A DNA stretch of 64,000 bases, taken from a virus. The translations under genes and the position numbers were made by a program. Shown here in pieces: positions 2,275-55,888 of this stretch; the stretch's first letter is position 1, and each line of letters begins with the position of its first letter. The stretch lies in UHGV virus genome UHGV-0041314; one strand, 5' to 3'. The notes under the pieces were generated by a model, which made no database searches, was not told the origin of the DNA, and saw only the letters and a list, made by a program, of their open reading frames with translations.

Positions 2275-2295
2275 TAACTATTGAGAGAGAATAAA

Positions 2296-2544
2296 ATGTT
2301 TAACAAAAGTAAAGCTGTGAGTCATGTAGCAAAAGTTGACAGCAAGATTGAAGAACTTGAGCGCATTCTTGCAAATGCCAGAGAGTCAATAATTAAAGAG
2401 GTTGAAGCTGTTGAATCTCAAATGCAGCACCTAATGCTTAAACGTCAAGAACTACGTGAGCATCTGGAATATATTGAAACACGAGAGCTAAAGGTTAACA
2501 GATATTTTAAGGAGTCCAAATGTTTAACTCAAGAGAATCAGTAA
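2296..2544 (+). CDS. hypothetical protein (coiled-coil)
   Basis: track ORF 2281..2544 starts at TTG; in-frame ATG at 2296. Confidence 0.4.
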   Translation: MFNKSKAVSHVAKVDSKIEELERILANARESIIKEVEAVESQMQHLMLKRQELREHLEYIETRELKVNRYFKESKCLTQENQ

Positions 2545-3275: not shown

Positions 3276-3579
3276 TAAAGAAGGTGTGGCTCAGAAGAGC
3301 CACTTCTCAAACTACAATATCTCTATGACGGTGTTTATGAATGACCCGTTACTTGAGAAGTATGGTGAGACTCCAGATACACTTCTGGATAATGAACAAG
3401 TTTTAAAAGCAGTCCTGTACAAATACGGGATTGATATTGAGAAAGAGTATTCTTTTGAAATCTGTCAACACAGGAATACTTTTGGTAAAGTTGTAATGGC
3501 TCCACTCTTCATGGGTGTAGAAAGAACTGACTATGGTTGGTTATATCTAAAAAGAAACTTGGAGAAATACCGTGTCTAA
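3256..3579 (+). CDS. hypothetical protein
   Basis: track ORF from TTG 3247; ATG at 3256. Confidence 0.4.
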   Translation: MDSQNINKEGVAQKSHFSNYNISMTVFMNDPLLEKYGETPDTLLDNEQVLKAVLYKYGIDIEKEYSFEICQHRNTFGKVVMAPLFMGVERTDYGWLYLKRNLEKYRV

Positions 3580-3904
3580 AGCAAAAAAGCTATCTTATGA
3601 TGACATTATCTCAGGTGCTAAATTAGGTGTTGATAGTATCGGGCAAGATGTTAAGCACGGGGACACAGTTATGTACTGTGACGACCGAAGAGGCAGAAGT
3701 GCAATCTTGTTTGGAAGAGTTGTTTGCAAGATGCGAGGTAACTATGTTGTTGAAGACATGAATGTGGATGTCACAAAACAGCTTGAAATAATTATGAATA
3801 GTAATATATCATGGTTCGTCAATTGTATGCACACTTCGTCAGTCACAAAGGTAAGTGATAAGTTTTACGATATGTGGCAGAATGAGCAAATTTTCAAGAT
3901 TTAA
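3572..3904 (+). CDS. hypothetical protein
   Basis: GTG start with GGAG 8 nt upstream; terminator-like hairpin after stop. Confidence 0.35.
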   Translation: MSKAKKLSYDDIISGAKLGVDSIGQDVKHGDTVMYCDDRRGRSAILFGRVVCKMRGNYVVEDMNVDVTKQLEIIMNSNISWFVNCMHTSSVTKVSDKFYDMWQNEQIFKI

Positions 3905-8057: not shown

Positions 8058-10202
8058 ATGAACAAAGTACAGATTATTAAAAAGAATGGCTCACTTGAAG
8101 AACCGGATATCAAAAAAGTTTTAGCAGCAGTAACTAAGTCAGCTAACAGGGTTGGGTATAAAGAACTCCCACCAGATGTTACCCAAGCTCTTGAGTCAGC
8201 ATTTATGAGGATTCTGGTGAAGTCCACTAAGCAGAATAATTTGCTCATCTCGGTAAATGACATTCACAGTATTGTTGAGGGTGCTTTGGCAGAAGTCAAT
8301 CACGAGATTTACGAGTCTTACTCAACATATAGAAATTACCGTAAAGAGGTTGCTCAAAATTGGGATGAGCTTTACCAAAAGACTAGAGACACACTCTTCT
8401 TAGGTGACCGTGAAAATGCCAACTTTGACAGCAGTTTAATTTCTACAAAAGGTTCAATTATTCGTGGTTATCTGACTAAAGAAATCTTTAAACAATACCA
8501 TTTAACACCAGAGGAACTCGAAGCCATTGAACAAGGGTTTATCTACATCCATGACTTAAGAGACCTAATTTTTGGTGGTATTAACTGTTGCTTGTTTGAC
8601 ATTGGTAAAGTACTGAAAGGTGGCTTTGAAATGTCTGGCATCGAATACTGTGAACCGAAGTCTGTACTGTCAGCCTTACAAGTTATCGGTGATGTAGTTC
8701 TTTCAGCAACTGCACAGCAATTTGGTGGATTTACTTTAGCAGAGATTGATAAGGTACTTGTACCGTATGCTAAGAAGTCTCTACGCTATCATGCTGAGAA
8801 AGCAGCATCTTACGGTATTCCTAAAGAGCATTACCATAACTATGTCATGGAGCAGCTACAGATTGAATTAACTCAAGGCTTCCAGTCACTAGAGATGAAA
8901 CTAAACACCGTACCTTGCAGCCGTGGTGATTTTGCATTCACAACTTTAACATTTGGGTTGCTCGACTCAGATATGTCTAATGAAGACAACAGACTGCAAT
9001 ACATGATTGCAAGTACTCTCCTAGATGTTCGTATGAATGGGCAAGGTAAGAGCAAAAAACCTGTTGTATTCCCTAAACTGGTTTATATCTACGACCAGAA
9101 GAGACATGATGAAAATATCTGTCAAGGTCACCTGTACAGTAAAGCTATCGAGTGTTGCTCTAAAGCAATGTATCCAGATTTCTTAAGTGTATCTGGTCAC
9201 GGTGCTGTAGCAGAAGCTTTTGAGCGTTCTGGTAAGGTAATTTCACCGATGGGTTGCAGAGCTTTCTTGTCTCCATATCTTAACGATGATGGGGAAGAGT
9301 TCTACGTTGGTCGTGCTAACATTGGTGCTGTGTCTTTGAACTTGCCAATGATTTACCAGTATTCTAAAGAGAATGGTTTAGATTTCTGGAAAGAGCTTGA
9401 TAAGTACCTAGAGATGATTCGCAGCTTCCACAAGAAACGCTACGAAATGATTGCTAATATGCCAGCAAGTTCTAACCCTCTTGCATTCACACAAGGTGGT
9501 CTGTACAAAGGTACTAAGAAATCTACTGACAAGGTTGGCTGGGATATCGTGAAGTCCTTCACAGCTTCTTTTGGGGTTACCGCACTGGATGAGTTATCTG
9601 TTCTTGCTGAAGGTAAACGACTTCATGAAGTTGGAAGCTATAGTTTTGCATACGATGTTCTGGCATACATCAACATGAAAACTGAAGAGTTTAAAAATGA
9701 AGATGGCTTCTTATATGCTGTCTATGGTACTCCAGCAGAATCACTTTGTGGAACTCAGCTAAAACAGTTCAGAGAAATGTTTGGTGTTATCAAAGGTGTT
9801 TCTGACAAGGAATACTTTACAAACAGTTTCCATATGAATGTTGCAGCAGATATCTCACCATTTGAGAAGCAGGACTTAGAAGAGCCATTCTTCCATATCT
9901 GTAGAGGTGGTAGAATCCAGTATGTCAGAGTAGCTAACCCAGAAAACTTAACAGCACTTAAAAGCTGTATTACAAGAGGCATGTTGAAAGGTTTTTATCA
10001 GGGACTTAACTTTGACTTAGCAATCTGTGAGCATTGTGGTAACAGACCAAAGGCTGATGTTGAAGAATGTGAGGTTTGCCATTCACATGATATCTCTGTG
10101 ATTAACAGGGTGTGTGGGTATCTTGGATGGACTAAGATTAAAGGCGAATCCCGAATGAACGATGCAAAAATTGCTGAGATTCGTGACAGAGTTTCTATGT
10201 AA
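8058..10202 (+). CDS. nrdD: anaerobic ribonucleoside-triphosphate reductase (class III)
   Basis: 714 aa; C-terminal glycyl-radical motif RVCGYLGW and Cys-rich zinc-ribbon CEHCGN...CEVCHSHD. Confidence 0.9.
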   Translation: MNKVQIIKKNGSLEEPDIKKVLAAVTKSANRVGYKELPPDVTQALESAFMRILVKSTKQNNLLISVNDIHSIVEGALAEVNHEIYESYSTYRNYRKEVAQNWDELYQKTRDTLFLGDRENANFDSSLISTKGSIIRGYLTKEIFKQYHLTPEELEAIEQGFIYIHDLRDLIFGGINCCLFDIGKVLKGGFEMSGIEYCEPKSVLSALQVIGDVVLSATAQQFGGFTLAEIDKVLVPYAKKSLRYHAEKAASYGIPKEHYHNYVMEQLQIELTQGFQSLEMKLNTVPCSRGDFAFTTLTFGLLDSDMSNEDNRLQYMIASTLLDVRMNGQGKSKKPVVFPKLVYIYDQKRHDENICQGHLYSKAIECCSKAMYPDFLSVSGHGAVAEAFERSGKVISPMGCRAFLSPYLNDDGEEFYVGRANIGAVSLNLPMIYQYSKENGLDFWKELDKYLEMIRSFHKKRYEMIANMPASSNPLAFTQGGLYKGTKKSTDKVGWDIVKSFTASFGVTALDELSVLAEGKRLHEVGSYSFAYDVLAYINMKTEEFKNEDGFLYAVYGTPAESLCGTQLKQFREMFGVIKGVSDKEYFTNSFHMNVAADISPFEKQDLEEPFFHICRGGRIQYVRVANPENLTALKSCITRGMLKGFYQGLNFDLAICEHCGNRPKADVEECEVCHSHDISVINRVCGYLGWTKIKGESRMNDAKIAEIRDRVSM

Positions 10203-37783: not shown

Positions 37784-37806
37784 TAAAAAGGCTCCCGAAG
37801 GAGCCT
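37784..37806 (-). terminator. rho-independent terminator (minus strand) downstream of lysozyme gene
   Basis: minus-strand GGCTCC-TTCG-GGAGCC then TTTTT; same hairpin sequence as 21889. Confidence 0.55.
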
Positions 37807-37815
37807 ATGAAGATA

Positions 37816-38280
37816 TTACTTTGGATATACACTGTCAAGATAAATGTCAGCTTCCATTCTACGTCTGTTTTTCAAGCCGTTTGAAGTGACCTTCTTACCT
37901 TTGACTGTAATCTTGTTCCACCACTGCATAGCTTCTGCACAACCTACCTTATTACCAGCATTGTGGCGCTTGATAAATGTAGAATCCTGCATAGCTGTGA
38001 TACCGATGTTGTATGTTTCACTTACAAGTGCATCGAACTCATTCTGAGAAGTTGGAACCTTGATAGCTTTGTTCACTGCTGCAACAAACTTTTCAACATC
38101 TGCGAGAAGATACTGTTCGGCTTGTTCAGCAGTAATTTTCATACCCATCTTAACAGGTTTACCAGAAATACTGGTTGTCCCATACCCAATTGTAGGGATT
38201 CCAGCAGAGTCTTCGTAAGCCTCTAACTTCAGACCTTCAAAGAACTTAATAGCTTCTAAACCTTTTCTTGAGAGTTGCAT
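37816..38280 (-). CDS. lysozyme / endolysin (glycoside hydrolase family 24, T4-lysozyme type)
   Basis: N-terminal FFEGLKLEAYEDSAGIPTIGYGTT matches the GH24 catalytic-region pattern; strong AGGAGG RBS. Confidence 0.8.
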   Translation of the reverse strand: MQLSRKGLEAIKFFEGLKLEAYEDSAGIPTIGYGTTSISGKPVKMGMKITAEQAEQYLLADVEKFVAAVNKAIKVPTSQNEFDALVSETYNIGITAMQDSTFIKRHNAGNKVGCAEAMQWWNKITVKGKKVTSNGLKNRRRMEADIYLDSVYPK

Positions 38281-39665
38281 TATTCCCCTCCTGCTGGGTT
38301 AACTGTAACTGTTGCTGCATTAGATGTTACAGAACCACCTGCACCAGTTACTACGCAAGTGTAGCTTCCTGCATCAGCAGTAGTTGCACCTTCTTTGGTG
38401 TAAGTTGCAGTCGTTGCGTCTGGGATGTCTTCCTCACCCTTCTTCCACTGATAACCTGTTGCACCTGTTGCTACAACGTTGAGTGTCAATGTCTCACCTT
38501 CGGTGATTTCCTGATTGGTTGGCTGTTGAGTGATTACCGGAAGTGCTTTAACAGTAACTGTTGCAGCATTAGACGTGACTGTTGTACCACCTGCGCCAGT
38601 AACTACACAGGTATATGCACCAGCGTCAGCAGGGGCTGCTTTAGCTTTCGTGTAAGTTGCACCAGTTGCGCTAGGGATGTTCACATTGTCTTTCTTCCAC
38701 TGGTAACCTGTTGCACCTGTAGCCTCAACACTCAGCGTCAAACTACTACCTTCATTGACTGCTTGGTTGGTTGGCTGCTTGGTAATCACTGGTAGAGAGT
38801 TTACTACAACAGTCGCAGGGCTAGAAGTAACAGAACCACCTGCACCAGTTACTACGCAAGTGTATGAGCCTGCATCTGTTGGCAGTGCGCCAGACTTGCT
38901 ATAGGTGGCTTCTGTAGCTGAAGGGATGTCAGAACCATCTTTCTTCCACTGGTAACCTGTTGCACCTGTTGCAGTTACTTCCAAGTTGATGTTTCCACCC
39001 TCATTAATGGTCTGGCTAGAAGGTTGCTTGGTAATCACTGGTAGTGCATTAACAGTAACTGTTGCCGCATCTGAAGTAACACTTGTTCCAGCCTCTCCAG
39101 ACACAACACAAGTGTATGAACCAGCATCAGAAGGTGCTACGGATTGTTTTGTGTAAGTTGCAGAGGTAGCACTGGAGATGTCCTCACCACCCTTCTTCCA
39201 CTGATATCCAGTGGCGTTAGTTGCAATAACACTTAGGGTAAGTGTTCCACCCTCATTGACCGTTTGGTTTGTTGGTTGTTGAGTAATTGCTGGTGGCTTA
39301 ATAGCATCCTTCAGCTTAGCATTCAACATTGAGAAAGGTTTAACTCTTGCCAGCCATTCACAGTAAATTGTGTCAACATCTTTACCGTTGATGATTGCAT
39401 ACTGTAAATCCATGAAGAAATCAGCAGTCCTCATCTGTGCACCAACACTGTAAAGGAGTTCATCACTAAAAGGGACTTTGTAGTCTGGTTTGTAGTCAAA
39501 CTTCTCAACCTCTGCAATATCAGCTTCAGGCCAATATGAGCTATAGGTGAGTGGTAAAATAGCTTCTTGATATGTTCTAAAATCATATCTCTTACCAGCC
39601 TTTACATTTGCGATGAAGCCCTTCACAAATTCTTTGAAGTCTGGGTAAGTCTTTGCTTTAATCAT
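38280..39665 (-). CDS. protein with conserved N-terminal domain plus four tandem Ig-like repeats
   Basis: four ~85-aa repeats, each with PxITxQPTNQ...ATGATGYQWKK...DAGSYTCVVTGAGG...ATVTV; N-terminal ~125 aa paralogous to next gene. Confidence 0.6.
   Translation of the reverse strand: MIKAKTYPDFKEFVKGFIANVKAGKRYDFRTYQEAILPLTYSSYWPEADIAEVEKFDYKPDYKVPFSDELLYSVGAQMRTADFFMDLQYAIINGKDVDTIYCEWLARVKPFSMLNAKLKDAIKPPAITQQPTNQTVNEGGTLTLSVIATNATGYQWKKGGEDISSATSATYTKQSVAPSDAGSYTCVVSGEAGTSVTSDAATVTVNALPVITKQPSSQTINEGGNINLEVTATGATGYQWKKDGSDIPSATEATYSKSGALPTDAGSYTCVVTGAGGSVTSSPATVVVNSLPVITKQPTNQAVNEGSSLTLSVEATGATGYQWKKDNVNIPSATGATYTKAKAAPADAGAYTCVVTGAGGTTVTSNAATVTVKALPVITQQPTNQEITEGETLTLNVVATGATGYQWKKGEEDIPDATTATYTKEGATTADAGSYTCVVTGAGGSVTSNAATVTVNPAGGE
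38290..39300 (-). repeat. four tandem ~255-bp DNA repeats encoding Ig-like domains
   Basis: repeating nucleotide blocks matching the four protein-level repeats of 38280..39665. Confidence 0.55.
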
Positions 39666-40033
39666 TTCTTTTTAGCCTCTAAACGTGCGTTTAATCTGAA
39701 ATAGCCTTTGTGTTGTGGAGACACATCACTAACAACAATACCTTCAACTTTATAACCCTTACCAATTACATACTGGATATCCATAAGAAACGTACCAAGC
39801 CCAACAATGTGGAACATTGGGTATAGTAACTTATCTGAATCTGGAAGTTTGATGTCTGGGTTATAGGTAGGTTGCTCGGCAGTTGGTGTAATATCCTCTT
39901 CAGGCCATCTACTCATTCTCCATGTTAAAGGTGATGAAATAACATCGTTAAGATTGTATTTTTCACCATTCTCCACGGAGCGGATATAGGATTGTAGGAA
40001 GCAATAAAAGTCTTTTGCACTCTTAGCCTTCAT
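39662..40033 (-). CDS. paralog of the N-terminal domain of the Ig-like repeat protein
   Basis: shared pattern MxKAK...WPExDI...YxPDxKxPxSDxLLY...FxMDxQYxIxxGK with 38280..39665. Confidence 0.45.
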   Translation of the reverse strand: MKAKSAKDFYCFLQSYIRSVENGEKYNLNDVISSPLTWRMSRWPEEDITPTAEQPTYNPDIKLPDSDKLLYPMFHIVGLGTFLMDIQYVIGKGYKVEGIVVSDVSPQHKGYFRLNARLEAKKK

Positions 40034-40080
40034 TAAATATCCTTATAAATAGATAAAGGGGCGTTAGCCCCTGTTTATAC

Positions 40081-40671
40081 TTAAGCTTTGGTCTTAAGTA
40101 GGTTCTTAAGCTTTTTGAGATTCATGCTCTCGTCAAACTTAAAACCAAATCCATTGACATAATCAATGAACTCGGATTTCTTACTAAGTGATAGTGCGTA
40201 ACTCATATCAAAGTTATTACTTGTTTCTGCGTCTGGACTAGAGTTCACATCAAATGAAATTTCTGTAGGTTCTTGTTTGCTGCTTCTCATATTATCAATC
40301 AATAGACAGGTATAGTTTGCTGGATAGAAGTTAACACTCCCGTCAACATACCCATACTTATTATTGTGAATGAGGCTGGAAAATACCTTAAGAAATGTTT
40401 CTGCGTCGTGGCATACAAGTTTGAATTGACTACATTCACCAAGAGCCACTAAAGAGTAAGGACTTTCACTATCAATGTCATAATTCGGATTTGATGTTGT
40501 AACCGTCACACGCATCAGGTTATTGGCGATAGTCTTCTGCTTAAAAGAATTTGGAACATAGTGAAGACCTCTGTCACATTGATTAACTAACTCTTTCAAT
40601 AGGTCGTTTGCATATGGTGAATTAATTGATACAGAGCCATCACTATTGTAATTAAAACTTACTGTTAACAT
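40081..40671 (-). CDS. hypothetical protein
   Basis: track ORF; AGGAGA RBS. Confidence 0.4.
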   Translation of the reverse strand: MLTVSFNYNSDGSVSINSPYANDLLKELVNQCDRGLHYVPNSFKQKTIANNLMRVTVTTSNPNYDIDSESPYSLVALGECSQFKLVCHDAETFLKVFSSLIHNNKYGYVDGSVNFYPANYTCLLIDNMRSSKQEPTEISFDVNSSPDAETSNNFDMSYALSLSKKSEFIDYVNGFGFKFDESMNLKKLKNLLKTKA

Positions 40672-41743: not shown

Positions 41744-43159
41744 ATGAGCGAATTATTTAAACATGCGCACCTTCATGCAGGTCGAACTGAAAATGGTGCT
41801 GTAAACCATACTTCATCAATGTCTGCTCTTGTGGACTTTTACAAAGCTGCTGGTTCCAGCCGTAGCAATGTAGAAATCTTACCAGACTTGTTCTACAAAG
41901 CTTTGCGTGAGGATGTTGATGTTGCAGTTCGTATTTTGCTTCACATGCGAGATGTACGAGAAGGTATGGGCGAGCGTAAAGCCTTCAGAACTGTTTTACT
42001 TCAAGCAATCGAAGATAAAGTTTTAGAGCCTACGCAGGTTCTTCGTATTATGGATAAGATTGCAGAACTTGGTCGTTTTGATGACTTCAAAATCTTCGTA
42101 GGTACTCGTTTTGAGACAGATGCCTTCAAACATTTAGAAGCAGCATTACTAGACCCTGCAACAGCAGGTTTAGCAGCCAAGTGGTTACCACGAGTAAAAC
42201 CACGACACAAACAGTTTGTAAAACGTTTCTGCAAGTTTGCTAACTTAAGTGAGAAAGAGTACCGCACACTGTTGTCTGCACTGTCTGATACGGTTGAGCA
42301 AAAAATCTCTGCTAATGAGTTTGGTAAGATTGACTACAGCAAGATTCCTTCACTCGCTGCTGCACGTTACCAAAAACTCTTTAACCGTAAAGATGGGGAA
42401 CGTTACAAAGCTTACATTGAGTCACTCTCAAAGGGTGAGGCTAAGATTAACGCTGGTGCTGTTTACCCATATGATGTGATTAAATCTATTAAGTATGGTA
42501 ATGCAGATGTTGCGAATGAGCAGTGGAAAGCACTGCCAAACTGGATGGCAGAGGGTGAAAACATCTTGTGTATGACTGATGTTTCATGTTCAATGTCTTG
42601 GGTGAATCTTGGCTCAATCACTGCCCTTGATATTGGTGTATCCCTTGCCTTGTATGTAGCAGAACGCAATACGGGTTGCTTTAAGAATGAGTTAATGGTT
42701 TATTCAACAAACCCTCATTTTATCGAACTGAGTGGTGATTTACGAAACCGTCATCGTCAGGTAATGCGTCATGTTGAATATGGCTCAACTAACTTACAAG
42801 CAGCTTTTGACCGCATTCTTGAGGTAGGTAAGCGAAACAACTTGACTCAGAAAGATATGCCAAGTAAGCTTATTATCTTCTCTGATATGGAGTTCAATCA
42901 GGTTGATGGAGCTAACGGTCGTACAAACTTTGAAGCAATTCAGAGTAAGTACAAAAAAGCTGGATACGAAATGCCACAACTAGTATTCTGGTACTTAGCA
43001 AACCGTAATGGTACTTGCGAAGTATCTGTTAAGGATAATGGTGTAGCAATGGTATCAGGGTTCTCTCCAGCCACTTTAAAAGCTCTGCTTGGTGGTGAGA
43101 AGTTTGACCCAATCAGCGTAATGCTCAAAGCAGTAATGATTGACCGTTACATCTGGTAA
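41744..43159 (+). CDS. vWA-domain protein with MIDAS motif; possible Ro60/Rsr (TROVE+vWA)-like RNA-binding protein
   Basis: 471 aa; MIDAS-like TDVSCSMS near residue 280 after ~270-aa N-terminal region; immediately upstream of the tRNA/structured-RNA cluster. Confidence 0.3.
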   Translation: MSELFKHAHLHAGRTENGAVNHTSSMSALVDFYKAAGSSRSNVEILPDLFYKALREDVDVAVRILLHMRDVREGMGERKAFRTVLLQAIEDKVLEPTQVLRIMDKIAELGRFDDFKIFVGTRFETDAFKHLEAALLDPATAGLAAKWLPRVKPRHKQFVKRFCKFANLSEKEYRTLLSALSDTVEQKISANEFGKIDYSKIPSLAAARYQKLFNRKDGERYKAYIESLSKGEAKINAGAVYPYDVIKSIKYGNADVANEQWKALPNWMAEGENILCMTDVSCSMSWVNLGSITALDIGVSLALYVAERNTGCFKNELMVYSTNPHFIELSGDLRNRHRQVMRHVEYGSTNLQAAFDRILEVGKRNNLTQKDMPSKLIIFSDMEFNQVDGANGRTNFEAIQSKYKKAGYEMPQLVFWYLANRNGTCEVSVKDNGVAMVSGFSPATLKALLGGEKFDPISVMLKAVMIDRYIW

Positions 43160-43429: not shown

Positions 43430-43506
43430 CTCTGTTTAGCTCAGCTTGGTAGAGCGTTCCGTTTGGGGCGGTAAGGCCGGAGGTTCAAGTCCTCCAACAG
43501 AGACCA
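43430..43506 (+). tRNA. tRNA-Pro (anticodon UGG)
   Basis: cloverleaf by eye: acceptor CTCTGTT/AACAGAG, anticodon loop TTTGGGG, T-arm GGAGG-TTCAAGT-CCTCC, CCA encoded. Confidence 0.65.
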
Positions 43507-43513
43507 AATTAAT

Positions 43514-43591
43514 GTTCCAGTAGACAAAATGGTAAAGTCACCACTCTTTCAAAGTGGATATTTGAGGGTTCAAATCCCTTCTGGAACGCCA
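43514..43591 (+). tRNA. tRNA-Glu (anticodon UUC)
   Basis: acceptor GTTCCAG/CTGGAAC, anticodon arm CCACT-CTTTCAA-AGTGG, CCA encoded. Confidence 0.7.
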
Positions 43592-43596
43592 GTTTT

Positions 43597-43672
43597 GACA
43601 GAAGACCAATTGCAGCAAACTTAATCTTATTCATCTGAAGGTAAATCGGACAAAGAAGAGATTTGGTCTGGT
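43597..43672 (+). ncRNA. structured RNA element, bulged-helix family member 1
   Basis: CAGAAGACCAA...TTGGTCTGG long-range pairing with 2-nt bulge enclosing ~55 nt A/U-rich sequence containing CAGCAA. Confidence 0.3.
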
Positions 43673-43682
43673 CATTAAGAAT

Positions 43683-43759
43683 TGCGGGTATAGAGAAAGG
43701 GCGTCTCACATGTCTCATTAGCATGGTATCGGCAGGTTCGACTCCTGCACCCGCCTCCA
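43683..43759 (+). tRNA. tRNA with CAU anticodon (Met or Ile2), irregular 5' half
   Basis: T-arm GCAGG-TTCGACT-CCTGC and CCA clear; anticodon arm CATGT-CTCATTA-GCATG; 1-72 mismatch; extra nt before D-stem. Confidence 0.45.
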
Positions 43760-43763
43760 AATT

Positions 43764-43832
43764 TACAGAAGACCGTTTACAGCAATATTTATTAAATTTT
43801 TAGCGGAAAAATTGAAAGATACGGTCTGGTAA
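43764..43832 (+). ncRNA. structured RNA element, bulged-helix family member 2
   Basis: CAGAAGACCGT...ACGGTCTGG pairing; conserved TTTACAGCAA after 5' strand. Confidence 0.3.
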
Positions 43833-43842
43833 TACTAAACAT

Positions 43843-43919
43843 GGTTAGGAAGCACATAAGGTATGTGCGGTCGCCTGTTAAGCGAATGGCACAGGGTTCG
43901 AATCCCTGACTAACCGCCA
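43843..43919 (+). tRNA. tRNA-Asn (anticodon GUU)
   Basis: acceptor GGTTAGG/ACTAACC, anticodon loop CTGTTAA, T-arm CAGGG-TTCGAAT-CCCTG, CCA. Confidence 0.7.
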
Positions 43920-43988
43920 AATTTAGGAGAGAAGCGATTGCTCACCGATTTGTAAGGTGCAAGTCCTTAGCCTGAATAGAAATTAAAT

Positions 43989-44076
43989 GTGTCGTTATCC
44001 CGTAGATGGTAGCGGTGGGGACTGTAAATCCCTTGTCATTGAGACTCGGTAGGTTCGACTCCTACACGGCACACCA
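43989..44076 (+). tRNA. tRNA-Tyr (anticodon GUA), long variable arm
   Basis: 88 nt; anticodon arm GGGGA-CTGTAAA-TCCCT; variable arm GTC/GAC; T-arm GTAGG-TTCGACT-CCTAC; CCA. Confidence 0.65.
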
Positions 44077-44082
44077 AATAAA

Positions 44083-44160
44083 GGTTATGTAGTTTAATCT
44101 GGTTAAAATACTCCCCTGTCACGGGAGATGATGAGGGTTCGAATCCCTTCGTAACCGCCA
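44083..44160 (+). tRNA. tRNA-Asp (anticodon GUC)
   Basis: acceptor GGTTATG/CGTAACC, anticodon arm CTCCC-CTGTCAC-GGGAG, CCA. Confidence 0.75.
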
Positions 44161-44245
44161 AATTATAATAAGTATTTCAAAATGATGTTTTGAGAGGGCT
44201 ATTTAGCCCCTCCCTTAAAGAGTTCTTACGAGTATTCTTTAAAGG

Positions 44246-44322
44246 AGCAGAAGACCAAATTCAGCAAGTTACTTAAAATTTCAAGCCAATTTAATTTTGA
44301 AAAATTTAAAACTTGGTCTGGC
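44246..44322 (+). ncRNA. structured RNA element, bulged-helix family member 3
   Basis: CAGAAGACCAA...TTGGTCTGG pairing; AATTCAGCAA after 5' strand. Confidence 0.3.
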
Positions 44323-44332
44323 TCAACAAATT

Positions 44333-44468
44333 TACAGAAGACCGTTTACAGCAAACTTTAAACAATCTATTTCTCCGGTAAAGAAAAGGCGAAGGTTCGA
44401 TTCCTTCACTCGGCAGATGTCGAGTTGGTGTAATGGTAGCACTTAAGATGATAAACAACGGTCTGGTA
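44333..44468 (+). ncRNA. structured RNA with circularly permuted tRNA-like module inside a long bulged helix (Y-RNA/YrlA-like candidate)
   Basis: outer helix CAGAAGACCG (44335-44344) / CGGTCTGG (44459-44466); inside, T-arm GAAGG-TTCGATT-CCTTC then acceptor 3' strand ACTCGGC, 4-nt turn, acceptor 5' strand GTCGAGT and D-arm-like TGGTGTAATGGTAGCAC. Confidence 0.4.
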
Positions 44469-44475
44469 ATTATCT

Positions 44476-44604
44476 TTGTAGATAAGTTATTAAGCTTACC
44501 TGTGAGTATGCGACCACAAAGGGTGAAAGGGTAAATTCTAGATTTAAACCCAACAAGGCACATCGCTACAGACCTTAAGCAAGTCTGGGTAGCTTATCTA
44601 CAAA
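44476..44604 (+). ncRNA. structured RNA candidate enclosed by a 10-bp long-range helix
   Basis: TGTAGATAAG (44477-44486) pairs with CTTATCTACA (44595-44604); internal CAGACC...GTCTGG hairpin. Confidence 0.25.
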
Positions 44605-44615
44605 GATGATTTAAT

Positions 44616-44691
44616 GGAAGTGTAGCAGAATGGTGATGCGGCAGACTTTTAATCTGACAGGCGATGGGTTCGAATCCCTCCACTTCTACCA
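44616..44691 (+). tRNA. tRNA-Lys (anticodon UUU)
   Basis: acceptor GGAAGTG/CACTTCT, anticodon loop CTTTTAA; weak T-stem; CCA. Confidence 0.55.
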
Positions 44692-44695
44692 ATAT

Positions 44696-44772
44696 GGTTC
44701 AGTCGCAGATAAGGTAATGCAGGGGTTTCATAAGCCCTATGAATGTGGGTTCGATTCCCATCTGAACCTCCA
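44696..44772 (+). tRNA. tRNA with CAU anticodon (Met/fMet/Ile2)
   Basis: acceptor GGTTCAG/CTGAACC perfect; anticodon arm GGGGT-TTCATAA-GCCCT (G-C rich); T-arm GTGGG-TTCGATT-CCCAT; CCA. Confidence 0.65.
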
Positions 44773-44773
44773 A

Positions 44774-44849
44774 GCTGGTATAGTTAAGAAGGTTATAACA
44801 CTCCCCTGATAAGGGAACATCGGTGGTTCGATTCCACCTACCAGTACCA
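44774..44849 (+). tRNA. tRNA-Ile (anticodon GAU)
   Basis: anticodon loop CTGATAA; T-arm GGTGG-TTCGATT-CCACC; CCA. Confidence 0.7.
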
Positions 44850-44864
44850 ATTTCAATAAAGTTG

Positions 44865-44893
44865 TTGACATTGAGATGTGACGACTTTATAGT
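44865..44893 (+). promoter_or_regulatory. sigma70-like promoter inside the tRNA cluster
   Basis: TTGACA - 17 bp - TATAGT. Confidence 0.55.
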
Positions 44894-45187
44894 AACTGAA
44901 AATGATTCAGTATATGTATAATTCAAACACCAATACATGAGCGTTAGACGTAACACAATGTGGGGAAATTTGTTGTACATATTCTGAATAGTTTTCGTTG
45001 CGTAGCGTCTATTTTGCAAATTTAAAATAAATGCAAACGACAATGTTTTTCTGGCAGTAGCTTGATAGGCTAAACACCAGTGAGGTCTTCCAATCCCTCA
45101 TCAAAGAATTTGGCGTACTAGCCCACGGTATGATTAATAAGGTGGGCATCTTTAAGGGCTTTCTAAGAGAGTCTTTAAAGATAATTA

Positions 45188-45269
45188 CGGGGCGTATCTC
45201 AGCGGTCTTCTAAACCGCCGTTAACCGAGTAAGTGGAGTATGCGGGTTCGAGTCCTGCCGCCTCGACCA
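45188..45269 (+). tRNA. tRNA-like gene with irregular 5' half; anticodon undetermined (possibly UCU)
   Basis: canonical T-arm GCGGG-TTCGAGT-CCTGC, acceptor 3' strand and CCA; D/anticodon region does not fold as a standard cloverleaf by eye. Confidence 0.35.
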
Positions 45270-45412
45270 ATTTAGTTAGCAGATTGCTTAGACGACCTTA
45301 TCGGGTCTCCGTGTAAGGAGGTGGTCTGTATCTCATGTTTTCCAGAACATGTAAATAATCTGAGAAGGGGCTTTACAGTGTTGCGAAAATACGGTAAGCT
45401 TCGAATTACAGT

Positions 45413-45495
45413 ATGGGACGATGTTAAGACTCTAAGGCATGAGCAACGGCCTCCAAAACCGTTTCAAAGGGGTTCAACTCCTCCGTCCCATGCCA
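45413..45495 (+). tRNA. tRNA-Trp-like (anticodon CCA) with ~7 extra nt between acceptor and D-arm
   Basis: 3' two-thirds canonical (ACGGC-CTCCAAA-ACCGT, T-arm, GTCCCAT, CCA); 5' acceptor strand ATGGGAC displaced upstream. Confidence 0.4.
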
Positions 45496-45508
45496 AAGTC
45501 TTATTAGG

Positions 45509-45596
45509 GGTAGGTAGCGGCTAATGGTAGCCAAACTGTCTTGAAAACAGTTGCCACTGTAGAGATACGGTGAGGGTTCGACTCCTTTACTTACCG
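45509..45596 (+). tRNA. tRNA-Ser (anticodon UGA), long variable arm
   Basis: anticodon arm ACTGT-CTTGAAA-ACAGT; T-arm GAGGG-TTCGACT-CCTTT; 3' end encodes CC only. Confidence 0.6.
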
Positions 45597-45754
45597 CCTA
45601 ATAAGATTTACACCGTCCATGCTTGCTCGCATTTTCGGTTTATCCCTCGTGTATTGGTTGTACACACTGATAAAGCACCTAGTAGGTGTCACGGAGAAGA
45701 GATAATATCAAGCTCTCCAAAGGTTCTAGTCACCGGATTAAACAAGACTATGCA

Positions 45755-45776
45755 AAGACCTAAATAGGTCTTTTTA
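45755..45776 (+). terminator. rho-independent terminator inside tRNA cluster
   Basis: AAGACC-TAAATA-GGTCTT then TTTT. Confidence 0.5.
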
Positions 45777-45854
45777 GAGGGCTTCTAAGGTTATTACAGC
45801 TTGTTGTGGAACCTTGTTGCTTAGGTTCTTAGAAGTTCTCTAAAAAGATTTAAT

Positions 45855-45932
45855 GGGAGATTGACGGTAATTGGTAAACCTACCATCCTTAGAAGTTGGT
45901 GTTTGAGGGTTCGAATCCCTTGTCTCCTACCA
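45855..45932 (+). tRNA. tRNA-Leu-like (anticodon UAG), short variable loop
   Basis: acceptor GGGAGAT/GTCTCCT, anticodon loop CTTAGAA, T-arm GAGGG-TTCGAAT-CCCTT, CCA; D region irregular. Confidence 0.45.
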
Positions 45933-45939
45933 AATTAAT

Positions 45940-46015
45940 GCAGGTGTAGCAAAATGGTTATGCGGCTGACTCTTAATCAGTAAGACGATGGGTTCAATTC
46001 CCTCCACCTGTACCA
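45940..46015 (+). tRNA. tRNA-Lys (anticodon CUU)
   Basis: acceptor GCAGGTG/CACCTGT, anticodon arm GCTGA-CTCTTAA-TCAGT, CCA. Confidence 0.55.
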
Positions 46016-46021
46016 AACATT

Positions 46022-46097
46022 GGGGTCATAGTTTATATGGTTAAAATTCGAGTTTTGCAAACTTGGGAACTGAGTTCAACTCTCAGTGACTCCACCA
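46022..46097 (+). tRNA. tRNA-Ala (anticodon UGC)
   Basis: acceptor GGGGTCA/TGACTCC, anticodon loop TTTGCAA, T-arm CTGAG-TTCAACT-CTCAG, CCA. Confidence 0.7.
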
Positions 46098-46103
46098 ATT
46101 AGT

Positions 46104-46178
46104 GCATCCATAGTTTAAACGGGAAAATTACAGTCTTCCAAACTGAGGTTGAGGGTTCGATTCCCTCTGGATGCTCCA
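46104..46178 (+). tRNA. tRNA-Gly (anticodon UCC)
   Basis: acceptor GCATCCA/TGGATGC perfect, anticodon loop CTTCCAA, T-arm GAGGG-TTCGATT-CCCTC, CCA. Confidence 0.75.
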
Positions 46179-46185
46179 AATTAAT

Positions 46186-46262
46186 GCTGCTTTCGTATAA
46201 TTGGCTATTACACATCCCTTGTAAGGATGGAAATGCAGGTTCGAGTCCTGTGAGCAGCACCA
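46186..46262 (+). tRNA. tRNA-Thr (anticodon UGU)
   Basis: anticodon arm CATCC-CTTGTAA-GGATG, T-arm GCAGG-TTCGAGT-CCTGT, CCA. Confidence 0.75.
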
Positions 46263-46263
46263 A

Positions 46264-46356
46264 TTCAGAGGTCAAGTGAAAGACCGCTTTGAGTCAACTG
46301 AAGACCGTAACAAATCCCACGGAGTTGAGTTAGCGGCACAACTTCAGACCTCTTTC
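46264..46356 (+). ncRNA. structured non-tRNA RNA between tRNA-Thr and tRNA-Val
   Basis: nested helices AGAGGTC/GACCTCT, CTGAAG/CTTCAG, TCAACT/AGTTGA; contains CTGAAGACCGTAACAA resembling the CAGAAGACC motif. Confidence 0.3.
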
Positions 46357-46358
46357 AT

Positions 46359-46433
46359 GCTCGCTTAGTTTATATGGTAAAACATCACCCTTACAAGATG
46401 AAGAAAAAGGTTCAAGTCCTTTAGTGAGTACCA
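46359..46433 (+). tRNA. tRNA-Val (anticodon UAC)
   Basis: acceptor GCTCGCT/AGTGAGT, anticodon loop CTTACAA, T-arm AAAGG-TTCAAGT-CCTTT, CCA. Confidence 0.65.
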
Positions 46434-46434
46434 T

Positions 46435-46512
46435 GTTCCAGTATCCCAATTGGCAGAGGATGCAAGCTCAAACCTTGTATTAGTGACGGTTCGAATCCGT
46501 CTTGGAACACCA
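46435..46512 (+). tRNA. tRNA-Leu-like (anticodon CAA), short variable loop
   Basis: anticodon arm GCAAG-CTCAAAC-CTTGT, T-arm GACGG-TTCGAAT-CCGTC, CCA; weak D-stem. Confidence 0.5.
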
Positions 46513-46626
46513 ATTTTAGGAGAACACTATGAGTAATAAATCAATTGCAAAAAAGTTTATAGCGTCATTCAAAAACAGGCGTAAAAACAACTCTTGTGAA
46601 AAACTGTATGGTGTTCTTGTAGGTAA

Positions 46627-46702
46627 GCAGGATTAGTTCAAATGGATAGAGCAACAGTCTACGAAGCTGTTAATAGGGGTTCGAATCCCTTATCCTGCAC
46701 CA
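46627..46702 (+). tRNA. tRNA-Arg (anticodon ACG)
   Basis: acceptor GCAGGAT/ATCCTGC perfect, D-arm GTTC/GAGC, anticodon arm ACAGT-CTACGAA-GCTGT, CCA. Confidence 0.75.
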
Positions 46703-46721
46703 ATTTAAAGAGGCTATTTAG

Positions 46722-47279
46722 ATGAGATATTTGAAGTATGCTTCATGGATTGTCTTAGCTTTGTTAGAGCCATTTGCAGCAATCTTAGCAGTTATCTTAG
46801 CACCTTTCGTAGTCCCATTCTACAGTGAGAAGAAAGGACACTTACCTTTCGGCTTCAGATGGATGGAGACATATGACAACCCAATTGATGGTGATAAAGG
46901 GCATGTCGAACGATGGGCTAAGATTAGAAAGATTGGCAAGCTTGGTGTCTATATGCAGAGAGTCGGTTGGCTCTGGAGAAACAAAGCTTATAACTTCTCT
47001 TACCATGTATTAGGAAGAGATGTAAAAGATGTTACTAAGTGGAAAGGTAATATCAACGTAAGTTCTAACCCTGAAGATAATCAGACAGGTTATCTCCTAA
47101 TGTGGAACAGTAATGCTTGGGGATTATTCGCTTTTATCCCATCAATTAAAGTCTTTGGTAAACAATTCTACTGGAGAATTTATGTTGGATGGAAGCTAAA
47201 AAGTGTTGTCCCAGAAGAAAGAGCATTCTCAAGGGAAAGAGTTATGTTGGCATTCTTTATTCATCCACTAAGAAAGTAA
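46722..47279 (+). CDS. hypothetical membrane protein embedded in tRNA cluster
   Basis: AAAGAGG RBS; N-terminal hydrophobic segment; between tRNA-Arg and tRNA-Gln. Confidence 0.45.
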   Translation: MRYLKYASWIVLALLEPFAAILAVILAPFVVPFYSEKKGHLPFGFRWMETYDNPIDGDKGHVERWAKIRKIGKLGVYMQRVGWLWRNKAYNFSYHVLGRDVKDVTKWKGNINVSSNPEDNQTGYLLMWNSNAWGLFAFIPSIKVFGKQFYWRIYVGWKLKSVVPEERAFSRERVMLAFFIHPLRK

Positions 47280-47287
47280 AGATTTAA

Positions 47288-47363
47288 AGGGGATTAGTTT
47301 ACAAGGTTAAAACCTCGGTCTTTGAAATCGAAGAAGTTGGTTCAATTCCAACATCCCCCGCCA
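47288..47363 (+). tRNA. tRNA-Gln (anticodon UUG)
   Basis: anticodon arm TCGGT-CTTTGAA-ATCGA, T-arm GTTGG-TTCAATT-CCAAC, CCA; A1-C72 mismatch. Confidence 0.65.
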
Positions 47364-47365
47364 AT

Positions 47366-47444
47366 GCTCCATTACTCCAATTGGTAGAGAGGCCAGACTT
47401 AAAATCTGTGTTATGTATCGGTTCGAATCCGATATGGAGTACCA
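47366..47444 (+). tRNA. tRNA-Leu-like (anticodon UAA), short variable loop
   Basis: anticodon loop CTTAAAA, T-arm ATCGG-TTCGAAT-CCGAT, CCA. Confidence 0.5.
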
Positions 47445-47449
47445 AATTT

Positions 47450-47525
47450 AGCGGTATAGCATAACTGGCAATGCAGCAGTCTCTGAAGCTGTCTTATTAA
47501 GGTTCAAATCCTTATGCCGCTGCCA
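47450..47525 (+). tRNA. tRNA-Gln (anticodon CUG)
   Basis: standard numbering fits: D-arm GCAT/ATGC, anticodon arm GCAGT-CTCTGAA-GCTGT, T-arm TAAGG-TTCAAAT-CCTTA, CCA. Confidence 0.7.
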
Positions 47526-47556
47526 CTTCTAAGGGTTCTTACGAGAGTCCTTAAAT

Positions 47557-47632
47557 GTGGCCTTATCATAAATGGTAATGACCCATGCTGTGAACATGGT
47601 CTATACGGGTTCAAATCCCGTAGGTCACCCCA
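47557..47632 (+). tRNA. tRNA-His (anticodon GUG)
   Basis: D-arm TCAT/ATGA, anticodon arm CCATG-CTGTGAA-CATGG, T-arm ACGGG-TTCAAAT-CCCGT, CCA. Confidence 0.75.
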
Positions 47633-47638
47633 ATTTAT

Positions 47639-47714
47639 AGTCCAAGTAGCTTATATGGTTAAAGCGCGTGTCTGAAAAACATGAGAAGAGGGTTCAAATC
47701 CCACTGGACTACCA
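47639..47714 (+). tRNA. tRNA-Phe (anticodon GAA)
   Basis: anticodon arm CGTGT-CTGAAAA-ACATG, D-arm GCTT/AAGC, CCA; acceptor/T-stem register ambiguous by 1 nt. Confidence 0.6.
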
Positions 47715-47730
47715 ATTCCAAAGGTGCTTA

Positions 47731-48465
47731 ATGAAAGAGATGACAGAACAAGGTAAGGAGATTTTTAATCTCTTAAAAACCGGTAGAGGGTTTTCTAATC
47801 CCCTTATTACTGGTGCAGCAGTTCTCGGTGGAACCGTAGCTGCCTCTACATCACTTGTAAGCTCTATTAGCTCTGTAACAGACCCTACAATAAAAGATAA
47901 ACTTGTTGCTGCTGGACTTACAACAGTTCTGCTTAACAGCTTTACAACGAGCCTGACAAGCACTACATCAACTACTAAGACACTGACAGATTACGGTCAA
48001 AAGTCCATTGATGAGTTTTCCTCACGTATGCAGGTAGCAAAAGGCTATTCTAATGTTATGGGTGCAGCAGGTGAACAAGTTGGCTGTACACCATTTAGTG
48101 GTATTATGGGTGTTGCTACAGAGTATGGTCAAAAAGCTATGGATACGATTAACAGTGCACTAGACGGTGTTAATGATGTATTAAGTGACTTACAGGATGC
48201 TATTGATAAAGGTCTTGATACTATTTCTGATTTAGCTAACCAAGCTGTTAGTAAGATTAATGAAGGTATCTCGAAGATTACAGCTTATGCAGATGAAGTT
48301 GTGCAGATGATTGAAGAAGAAGCTGCCCTTATTGCAGAGTACCTTAAAACGAATATCAATGGGTTCTTAGCAGGTATCTTACCAGACTGGTTCGACGATG
48401 CTTGTAAAACTGGTGTAATTGACACTATTGCAACACCAGAAATGAAGAACGCATTACAGAAATAA
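47731..48465 (+). CDS. hypothetical Ser/Thr-rich protein embedded in tRNA cluster
   Basis: track ORF 47668 starts at GTG inside tRNA-Phe; ATG 47731 with AAGGTG RBS lies after the tRNA. Confidence 0.4.
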   Translation: MKEMTEQGKEIFNLLKTGRGFSNPLITGAAVLGGTVAASTSLVSSISSVTDPTIKDKLVAAGLTTVLLNSFTTSLTSTTSTTKTLTDYGQKSIDEFSSRMQVAKGYSNVMGAAGEQVGCTPFSGIMGVATEYGQKAMDTINSALDGVNDVLSDLQDAIDKGLDTISDLANQAVSKINEGISKITAYADEVVQMIEEEAALIAEYLKTNINGFLAGILPDWFDDACKTGVIDTIATPEMKNALQK

Positions 48466-48467
48466 AT

Positions 48468-48560
48468 GGAAGATTAACCCTAAAAGGTAAGGGAGCAGTT
48501 TGCTAAACTGCCAGTAGCTGAGAAATCGGTGTACCAGTTCAAGTCTGGTATCTTCCTCCA
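48468..48560 (+). tRNA. tRNA-Ser (anticodon GCU), long variable arm
   Basis: 93 nt; acceptor GGAAGAT/ATCTTCC perfect, anticodon arm GCAGT-TTGCTAA-ACTGC, T-arm ACCAG-TTCAAGT-CTGGT, CCA. Confidence 0.7.
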
Positions 48561-48564
48561 ATTT

Positions 48565-48640
48565 GAATCCGTGACAGAAATGGCTATGTGCCTGTCTGCA
48601 AAACAGGTTTATAAGGGTTCGAGTCCCTTCGGATTCTCCA
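48565..48640 (+). tRNA. tRNA-Cys (anticodon GCA)
   Basis: standard numbering fits: acceptor GAATCCG/CGGATTC, anticodon arm CCTGT-CTGCAAA-ACAGG, T-arm AAGGG-TTCGAGT-CCCTT, CCA. Confidence 0.8.
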
Positions 48641-54781: not shown

Positions 54782-55888
54782 ATGTTGACTAATTCTGAAA
54801 AAAGCAGATTTTTCCTTGCTGACCTGACTGGTGAAGTCCAGTCTATCCCAAATACTTATGGGTATATTTCCAACTTAGGTCTGTTCCGTTCAGCACCAAT
54901 CACCCAAACTACTTTCCTTATGGACTTGACTGATTGGGATGTTAGCTTGCTTGATGCGGTAGACCGTGATAGCCGTAAAGCAGAGACTAGCGCACCTGAG
55001 CGTGTTCGTCAAATCAGCTTCCCAATGATGTACTTCAAAGAAGTTGAAAGCATTACTCCTGATGAAATTCAGGGTGTACGTCAGCCAGGCACTGCAAACG
55101 AACTGACTACTGAAGCTGTAGTACGTGCTAAGAAGCTGATGAAGATTCGTACCAAGTTCGATATTACTCGTGAGTTCCTGTTTATGCAAGCTCTGAAGGG
55201 TAAAGTTGTTGATGCTCGTGGTACTCTGTATGCTGACCTGTACAAGCAGTTCGACGTTGAGAAGAAGACTGTTTACTTCGACCTTGACAACCCTAATGCT
55301 GACATCGACGCTTCTATTGAAGAACTGCGTATGCACATGGAAGACGAAGCTAAGACTGGCACTGTAATCAACGGTGAAGAAATTCACGTAGTTGTTGACC
55401 GTGTATTCTTCAGCAAGCTGACTAAACACCCTAAGATTCGTGATGCCTATCTTGCACAGCAGACCCCACTGGCTTGGCAACAGATTACTGGTTCTCTGAG
55501 AACTGGTGGTACTGACGGCGTTCAGGCTCACATGAACACCTTCTACTACGGTGGTGTTAAGTTTGTCCAGTACAACGGTAAGTTCAAAGACAAGCGTGGT
55601 AAGGTTCATACTCTGGTGAGCATTGATGGTGCTGGTGCAGAGGTTGGTGTAGGACACGCTTTCCCTAACGTTTCTATGCTTGGTGAAGCAAACAACATCT
55701 TCGAAGTGGCTTATGGCCCATGTCCTAAGATGGGTTACGCAAATACACTTGGTCAGGAACTGTACGTATTCGAATACGAAAAAGACCGTGACGAAGGTAT
55801 TGACTTTGAAGCTCACTCTTACATGCTGCCATACTGTACTCGTCCTCAGTTGCTGGTAGACGTTCGTTCTGACGCTAAAGACGAATAA
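54782..55888 (+). CDS. major capsid protein
   Basis: 368 aa after protease/decoration genes; GGAG RBS. Confidence 0.65.
   Translation: MLTNSEKSRFFLADLTGEVQSIPNTYGYISNLGLFRSAPITQTTFLMDLTDWDVSLLDAVDRDSRKAETSAPERVRQISFPMMYFKEVESITPDEIQGVRQPGTANELTTEAVVRAKKLMKIRTKFDITREFLFMQALKGKVVDARGTLYADLYKQFDVEKKTVYFDLDNPNADIDASIEELRMHMEDEAKTGTVINGEEIHVVVDRVFFSKLTKHPKIRDAYLAQQTPLAWQQITGSLRTGGTDGVQAHMNTFYYGGVKFVQYNGKFKDKRGKVHTLVSIDGAGAEVGVGHAFPNVSMLGEANNIFEVAYGPCPKMGYANTLGQELYVFEYEKDRDEGIDFEAHSYMLPYCTRPQLLVDVRSDAKDE

Follow-up and report, generated by a model that had tools for sequence, protein, structure and literature searches.

The capsid anchor of a decoration protein duplicated as a separate gene in a Felix O1-like phage

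UHGV virus genome UHGV-0041314 carries, within the 64,000-nucleotide stretch analysed here (the window), two overlapping minus-strand genes that encode related proteins. The longer one (38280..39665, 461 aa) is almost certainly the gene of the head decoration protein Hex-Dec, predicted to work as its orthologs do in the phages Bas63 and Sf14. The shorter one, immediately upstream (39662..40033, 123 aa), is a conserved stand-alone copy of the capsid anchor of that decoration protein, placed beside the full-length gene and undescribed in the papers searched. Both open reading frames (ORFs) had been put at these coordinates by a first-pass annotation made from the letters of the DNA alone, and both are there. 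Our best explanation of the pair as a whole, namely that the long gene is Hex-Dec and that its paralog serves as an accessory of head maturation, has in our estimate a probability of about 55%.

The 2.9-kb region around the two genes shows 95.7% DNA identity to Escherichia phage KEP3 and 92% to Bas63 (JohannRWettstein). It is matched by 251 records, nearly all of which belong to Felixounavirus, Mooglevirus or Suspvirus, and by this DNA similarity the window therefore represents a Felix O1-like myophage (Felixounavirus; Ounavirinae).

The long gene and its relation to Hex-Dec

In phmmer searches, the 461-aa protein aligned over its full length with Bas63 Hex-Dec, deposited as 'Immunoglobulin-like domain protein' (PDB 9ncf_S, E = 4.9e-275), and it also matched Sf14 gp20 (9c2d_S; chain S of 9C2D and 9C3A; E = 4.4e-165) and phrog_3995 (E = 1.8e-241). 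Its residues 1-123 align almost identically with the capsid-binding domain (CapBD) solved in the PDB entries. In Bas63, Hex-Dec (bas63_0124) consists of an N-terminal CapBD followed by four predicted immunoglobulin (Ig)-like domains that were too mobile to be resolved (PMC12609058), and Sf14 gp20 attaches through residues 1-118, with Arg79 and Arg107 forming salt bridges to Asp221 of three of six capsid subunits (PMC11821841). Both arginines are present in the translation of the 461-aa protein, and across 45 CapBD sequences they are conserved at 100% (Arg79) and 98% (Arg107). The major capsid protein (MCP) encoded in the window (54782..55888), which matches 9ncf_A at E = 1.2e-245, has an Asp at position 221. 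By CapBD homology, by the R79/R107 set together with D221 of the MCP, and by an Ig number within the range of one to four, the 461-aa gene is on its sequence a member of the Hex-Dec/gp20 family. Bas63 Hex-Dec (9NCF chain S) and Sf14 gp20 are its direct orthologs; they share the R79/R107 CapBD and the I-set Ig repeats, lie in the same paralog-Hex-Dec-endolysin neighbourhood and have a cognate MCP with D221. Bas63 carries four Ig units, as here, with a different cassette in third place, and Sf14 carries three, but the kind of protein is unchanged.

The first-pass annotation had considered decoration of the virion possible despite the location of the pair outside the structural genes. This proved well founded, as close orthologs (92-96% DNA identity) are bound to the capsid in cryo-electron microscopy (cryo-EM) and are detected in virions: in both Bas63 and Sf14 the ortholog occupies the centres of 60 edge hexamers of a T=9 head (PMC12609058, PMC11821841), and mass spectrometry found Felix O1 gp36 and Sf14 gp20 in purified virions. 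Likewise, the N-terminal domain, for which an enzymatic fold had been named as the alternative, is not enzymatic and corresponds to the capsid-binding domain. From the 92-96% DNA identity to these orthologs we infer an edge-hexamer location for the 461-aa protein too. In Sf14, the facet-centre (true 3-fold) hexamers are unoccupied; there, two of three Asp221 side chains have moved away from Arg79 and Arg107, and this shift keeps gp20 off these sites (PMC11821841). A knockout screen in Bas63 found g124 dispensable on most hosts and more important on strain S17-1.

If the protein works as in these relatives, one Hex-Dec monomer would sit at the centre of each edge (pentamer-proximal) hexamer, 60 on the T=9 head, anchored by its N-terminal domain of ~122 aa through salt bridges of Arg79 and Arg107 to MCP Asp221. 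The four I-set Ig domains would then project outward from the head as a flexible, acidic string and, by analogy with T4 Hoc, may adhere weakly to surfaces, host envelopes or other particles.

The likeness to Hoc is one of design. Hoc is also a monomer held at the hexamer centre by a small globular domain, with an acidic Ig-like string; it is non-essential, and its number of Ig domains varies among relatives. However, its capsid-binding domain is C-terminal, following the Ig-like domains, and the Bas63 authors, who made the same comparison, pointed out that the domains come in the opposite order and that the CapBD differs in topology (PMC12609058). T5 pb10 shares the N-terminal capsid-binding domain, the C-terminal Ig-like domain and the hexamer-centre site, and its Ig domain matches the Ig repeats of the window at E = 5e-12, but it has a single Ig domain, and comparison of the capsid-binding domains revealed no similarity in sequence or in fold. 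A profile built from both CapBD families retrieved neither Hoc nor pb10 from the PDB at E <= 10, and beyond these two families the fold is unique. Since homology of the capsid-binding domains was looked for and not found, the 461-aa protein falls outside the Hoc and pb10 families. The virion location of the long gene product and its variation between one and four Ig domains were already published in 2025, and in these respects the Ig-repeat gene adds nothing new. The label 'tail protein' in the records of most relatives is a known mis-annotation; the proper annotation is that of a Hoc-like head decoration protein.

The free-standing copy of the capsid-binding domain

The upstream gene had been described in the first pass as a diverged copy of the N-terminal domain alone, and every comparison agreed. 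Over its whole length, the paralog aligns with residues 2-119 of the long protein, with 36% identity over 121 aa (BLASTP, E = 2e-18), and the PHROG cross-hits between the two families are reciprocal (3.2e-16 and 7e-17). In the PDB, phmmer retrieved with it only 9ncf_S (E = 6.5e-13) and 9c2d_S (E = 1.5e-11), and comparison of an AlphaFold2 (AF2) model (mean predicted confidence, pLDDT, 71) indicated the same fold as the solved CapBD. Its orthologs are Bas63 gp125, Sf14 gp21 and Felix O1 gp37. The protein is a full-length member of phrog_4463 (E = 3.8e-77), a family of unknown function whose annotation does not mention homology to the Hex-Dec capsid-binding domain; it has no match in Pfam or NCBIfam, and a word-indexed protein search returned only close orthologs of at least 63% identity. 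The same type of search with the CapBD gave mostly 210-aa forms with one Ig domain and is not a census. When 1.84 billion representatives were searched exhaustively with a profile, the whole CapBD superfamily amounted to only 12 clusters, and there is therefore no wider family from which a function could be borrowed.

The 53 distinct paralog sequences have in common the invariant runs FYCFLQ, LLYPMFHIVGLG, GKGY and HKGYFRLNA, and at least 40 positions are conserved specifically within this family. They also keep the motifs of the superfamily, [W/F/M]PxxD[I/L/M] (the WPExDI loop), LLY, FxMDxQ (FxMDxQY), K109 and LNAxL, which unite the distant Kolesnikvirus-type proteins with them as well. The anchoring arginines are exchanged: the equivalent of Arg79 is Gly (Gly78) in 98% and that of Arg107 is Gln in 85% of the sequences. 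The paralog thus has the sequence homology and the fold of a CapBD but lacks the R79/R107 anchor.

Felixounavirus, Mooglevirus and Suspvirus all show the gene order orf196, paralog, Hex-Dec, endolysin, and so does an 87-kb metagenomic contig whose paralog is just 47% identical; this divergent paralog (P0055) had no match in an IMG/VR scan, and its contig was located by looking up the exact sequence. Both copies are carried by about 233 of 253 records. Among seven phages of three genera, the median ratio of non-synonymous to synonymous substitution (dN/dS) was 0.13 for the paralog, compared with 0.034 for the CapBD, 0.095 for the endolysin and 0.055 for the upstream gene, with synonymous sites near saturation between genera.

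As for its origin, Kolesnikvirus phiEa104 has orf205, a Hex-Dec homolog and the endolysin with no gene in between, and the duplication therefore postdates the split from Kolesnikvirus. The paralog would have been born after that split by tandem duplication of the capsid-binding domain. The Kolesnikvirus decoration protein (phiEa104 gp038/phiEa21-4 type) has a homologous CapBD (profile E = 2e-8), and its gene likewise lies between the orf196 homolog and the endolysin, but it carries one Big_2-type Ig domain in place of the I-set repeats and has no free-standing CapBD gene at its side. This arrangement is likely the pre-duplication state. Loss has also occurred. We examined six paralog-less phages (Denmark, the USA, India, China; one turkey isolate), with one or two Ig units in their Hex-Dec. 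The paralog is dead in all of them in the same way: its start codon is gone, it carries frameshifts, and ~218 bp inside it are deleted. This common allele suggests that the loss happened once and has endured. Judging from these alleles, the paralog is dispensable in nature, and Hex-Dec is not absolutely dependent on it.

The stop/start overlap between the paralog and Hex-Dec is kept in all eight lineages compared, with varying length and frame, and from this overlap the two genes are probably translationally coupled. The AAGGA Shine-Dalgarno sequence of the paralog is invariant in seven lineages, the divergent metagenomic contig included. Upstream lies a hairpin (GGGGC-loop-GCCCC) that scores as an intrinsic terminator on both strands; its position is conserved in seven lineages, with variants of the stem. 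Because just 23 nt separate the hairpin from the paralog start, there is no room for a sigma-70 promoter, and a scan of this interval found no convincing one. Reverse-transcription PCR in Felix O1 placed ORF36 and ORF37 in the late class, peaking at 60 min along with tail and baseplate genes, whereas their neighbours ORF35 and ORF38 peak at 25 min. We also considered a programmed -1 frameshift fusion of paralog and Hex-Dec, as the sequence GCT AAA AAG AAA TGA precedes the overlap and ribosomes slipping there would continue in the frame of Hex-Dec. Sf14 lacks the A-run, and the overlap is 8 nt in SUSP2 and 1 nt in the metagenomic lineage; since neither the A-run nor the frame relation is conserved, this candidate was rejected as a conserved feature.

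Possible roles of the paralog

The two cryo-EM studies leave the restriction of Hex-Dec to edge hexamers unexplained. The paralog, a co-expressed copy of the site-choosing domain in which one of the two selectivity-determining arginines is replaced, is a lead on this 60-of-80 decoration. The evidence on its own presence in virions speaks against it, though not decisively. The structural proteins identified in Felix O1 virions, in a list that required at least 25% coverage, do not include gp37, although proteins of lower copy number were detected. For VpaE1, 22 virion proteins were reported, and gp54, gp58 and gp68 alone set this list apart from that of Felix O1; by implication the paralog, which there would be ORF40, is absent. 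No density was seen on non-edge hexamers of Bas63 (PMC12609058), and neither the Bas63 nor the Sf14 cryo-EM paper reports unassigned density. The Sf14 mass-spectrometry table is limited to the products of structural genes, and the supplements of that paper do not mention gp21 (FDI99_gp021).

Our preferred, still tentative reading of the paralog is that it is a dispensable accessory that recognises MCP hexamers without being a stable, abundant part of the virion, and that it acts during head maturation. It may dock on capsid-protein hexamers and transiently occupy those hexamer centres that Hex-Dec leaves empty or fills only after expansion, in which case it would fine-tune decoration rather than be needed for it. 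A more specific form of this idea is a 'bald' hexamer-centre binder, either on the 20 facet-centre hexamers or as a transient mark of maturation, that helps to set the 60-of-80 pattern of Hex-Dec; we consider this possible but somewhat doubtful. If true, Hex-Dec would be the first decoration protein with a site selectivity shaped by a dedicated paralog.

Several points weigh against the maturation-accessory reading. With the loss of the anchoring arginines, capsid binding may have been lost altogether. The absence of gp37 from the Felix O1 list carries little weight, given the coverage cut-off and the small size of the protein, and icosahedral averaging would blur a monomer on 3-fold hexamers. 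The two cryo-EM papers do not mention the paralog or the duplication, the knockout preprint does not discuss g125, and a literature text search turned up just the same two cryo-EM papers. Finally, the AF2 model of the paralog is of moderate confidence, with residues 37-43 unreliable.

The blurring in icosahedral maps also leaves room for a paralog that is a second, low-copy decoration protein of the mature virion, bound to the 20 facet-centre hexamers by contact residues adapted to the Asp221 geometry at these sites. The exclusion of Sf14 gp20 from true 3-fold hexamers by two shifted Asp221 (PMC11821841) would fit this proposal, as would the specific loss of Arg79 (Gly in 98%) and, mostly, of Arg107 in a protein that keeps the fold and the superfamily motifs, and the late co-expression and coupled translation with Hex-Dec. 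However, Bas63 is without density on other hexamers (PMC12609058) and neither paper has density left unassigned, gp37 is missing from a Felix O1 list that includes proteins of lower copy number, and the VpaE1 set adds only the three proteins named above. Overall, we regard stable facet-centre decoration as unlikely.

Equally unlikely in our judgement is a paralog that has left the capsid for a new partner, either as a holding chaperone for the Hex-Dec CapBD before heads are ready or as a binder of a host or defence protein. Positions of type-II divergence that are conserved in the paralogs alone (Y10, C11, PMFHIVGLG, GKGY, HKGYFR), the lost Arg79, a net charge that varies by lineage (isoelectric point 5.2 to 9.1, compared with about 5.4 for most CapBDs) and the lack of detection in virions all speak for such a shift. 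An obligatory chaperone can be dismissed because Hex-Dec persists intact where the paralog is a pseudogene. In addition, the loop and strand motifs of the whole superfamily are kept, for which a shared ligand is the simplest explanation, and no partner is known. A functionless, slowly decaying leftover of a partial tandem duplication is very improbable: although the paralog is dispensable, is a pseudogene in one lineage (~20 of 253 records), evolves about four times faster than the CapBD at non-synonymous sites and was not singled out as g125 by PhageMaP, the selection data argue against a relic, with a dN/dS of 0.13 at near-saturated synonymous sites between genera, long invariant runs of residues, and frame, start codon, Shine-Dalgarno sequence and stop/start overlap intact in ~233 genomes as well as in the 47%-identity lineage.

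The role of the paralog is cheap to test with the Bas63 library knockouts, the natural null alleles, as in phages mio and Tf, and the deposited maps and mass-spectrometry data, among them the Sf14 capsid map EMD-45155 and the Sf14 virion data set MSV000096931 in MassIVE. For phage-display engineering, the paralog offers a minimal, putative hexamer-binding module of ~120 aa that can be compared with the Hex-Dec anchor.

Ig-repeat number and the surrounding genes

Pfam recognised four Ig stretches in the long protein (Ig_3/Ig_2/I-set, E = 3.5e-43 to 7e-33), and its translation contains GYQWKK four times, GSYTCVV three times and GAYTCVV once, in agreement with the first description of an N-terminal domain followed by four tandem Ig-like repeats with these hallmarks. 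The DNA repeats behind them, then estimated at ~255 bp, are real: four in-register copies start 252, 249 and 252 nt apart and are 60-72% identical over 174 nt. Tandem Repeats Finder did not report repeats of ~250 bp because the copies are too diverged. With tblastn within the window, the Ig units matched one another at E = 1e-29 to 5e-33, and neither a further Ig unit nor a third copy of the N-terminal domain appeared. On the opposite strand of the repeats, a Cys-rich ORF of 175 aa (38268..38795, plus strand) is an artefact that mirrors the coding repeats and not a gene.

Repeat-number variation had been thought likely, and relatives indeed carry one to four units. This range was described among species of the International Committee on Taxonomy of Viruses (PMC12609058), and in a sample spread evenly over the 257 matching records we found endolysin-to-paralog spans of ~2218, 1966, 1717 and 1465 bp, which correspond to 4, 3, 2 and 1 Ig units, with four units in just three sampled rows. 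Splitting eight Hex-Dec proteins into their units revealed the composition of the arrays. The last unit of HY02 (Ig3) is a chimera, 93-100% identical to unit 3 of the window over its first ~190 nt and continuing as unit 4, and the last unit of Felix O1 (Ig2) follows unit 2 for ~100 nt before switching to unit 4 at the GYQWKK core. In UAB_Phi87, the last unit is the ortholog of unit 4 (90% DNA identity). Bas63 (Hex-Dec at 8481..9863 of its locus extract) and the present phage have nearly identical proteins in units 1, 2 and 4, whereas Ig3 of Bas63 is only 59-64% identical in DNA to each of the four repeats here and is thus a different cassette, which indicates cassette exchange within the repeat array. 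The chimeric units, as aligned, are footprints of in-register unequal crossovers and cassette exchange. What is shown here beyond the 2025 papers, from the aligned repeats, is repeat loss by in-register crossovers at the conserved GYQWKK and YTCVVTGAGG cores.

A recent event may be represented by two records of Felix O1. Between AF320576 and FO1a (JF461087), the paralog, the endolysin and the upstream gene have zero mismatches, and the Hex-Dec genes (2869..3753 and 1965..2600 of the respective locus extracts) are identical at 636 of 636 positions save for a clean in-frame deletion of 249 bp, that is, one unit. This difference is either a change within laboratory time or an assembly error or collapse. 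Together with the chimeric repeats, the two records offer a tangible case of change in the Ig count displayed on a phage head.

Positions of the features of the gene pair and its flanks are collected in Table 1. As the first-pass annotation had remarked, the pair lies in a minus-strand block beside the lysozyme and outside the structural module: the genes for terminase, portal, MCP, sheath and tape measure protein are on the plus strand from ~49 kb, and ~10 kb and a cluster of 25 tRNA genes separate the pair from this terminase-to-tape-measure module.

Table 1. Features of the decoration-gene locus, with positions in the window.
Feature	Position	Strand	Evidence
Hex-Dec (almost certain), 461 aa (CapBD + 4 Ig domains)	38280..39665	-	phmmer to 9ncf_S, 9c2d_S; phrog_3995
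CapBD, aa 1-124, with Arg79 and Arg107	39294..39665	-	aligned to modelled residues of 9ncf_S, 9c2d_S
Ig-like repeat 1, aa 125-208	39042..39293	-	Pfam Ig_3/I-set; unit splitting
Ig-like repeat 2, aa 209-291	38793..39041	-	Pfam; unit splitting
Ig-like repeat 3, aa 292-375; other cassette than third repeat of Bas63	38541..38792	-	Pfam; unit splitting
Ig-like repeat 4, aa 376-461; conserved terminal repeat	38283..38540	-	Pfam; orthologous to last repeat of UAB_Phi87 (90% DNA identity)
Free-standing CapBD paralog, 123 aa, phrog_4463	39662..40033	-	
ATGA stop/start overlap of paralog and Hex-Dec, 4 nt	39662..39665	-	sequence
Shine-Dalgarno AAGGA, 6 nt ahead of paralog ATG	40040..40044	-	sequence
GC hairpin and T-run, terminator-like on both strands, ends upstream gene	40057..40072	-	hairpin scan; terminator listed there in Felix O1 Table 2
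Endolysin (glycoside hydrolase family 24 lysozyme), 1-nt overlap with Hex-Dec stop	37816..38280	-	Pfam PF00959 Phage_lysozyme, E = 1.8e-41
Terminator-like hairpin ending the three-gene unit paralog/Hex-Dec/endolysin	37789..37806	-	hairpin scan

The gene preceding the paralog, orf196 (40081..40671, minus strand), encodes 196 aa of phrog_4034, a family of unknown function, and had no Pfam or NCBIfam match. It is kept upstream of the decoration gene in all Ounavirinae examined, Kolesnikvirus included, and its dN/dS of about 0.055 denotes strong purifying selection. On the plus strand, a 471-aa ORF (41744..43159), labelled 'RNA-binding protein' with DUF2828/vWFA in relatives, is the ortholog of Bas63 gp130 and directly precedes the tRNA cluster (43430..48640, plus strand). 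According to a preprint proposal, gp130 acts against the ppl defence system, and Y-RNA-like partners may be among the 'tRNAs' (PMC11482910). An Rfam search over 37-49 kb yielded tRNAs only and thus no RNA element in the locus. One of its matches, at 45188..45266 (plus strand), is barely over the threshold (31.7 bits) and was not called by ARAGORN; conversely, the tRNA-Met at 43683 and the tRNA-Tyr at 43989 are ARAGORN calls that are missing from the Rfam gathering list. In Bas63, the endolysin ortholog g123 triggers the Ec67 retron defence system, according to the PhageMaP preprint.

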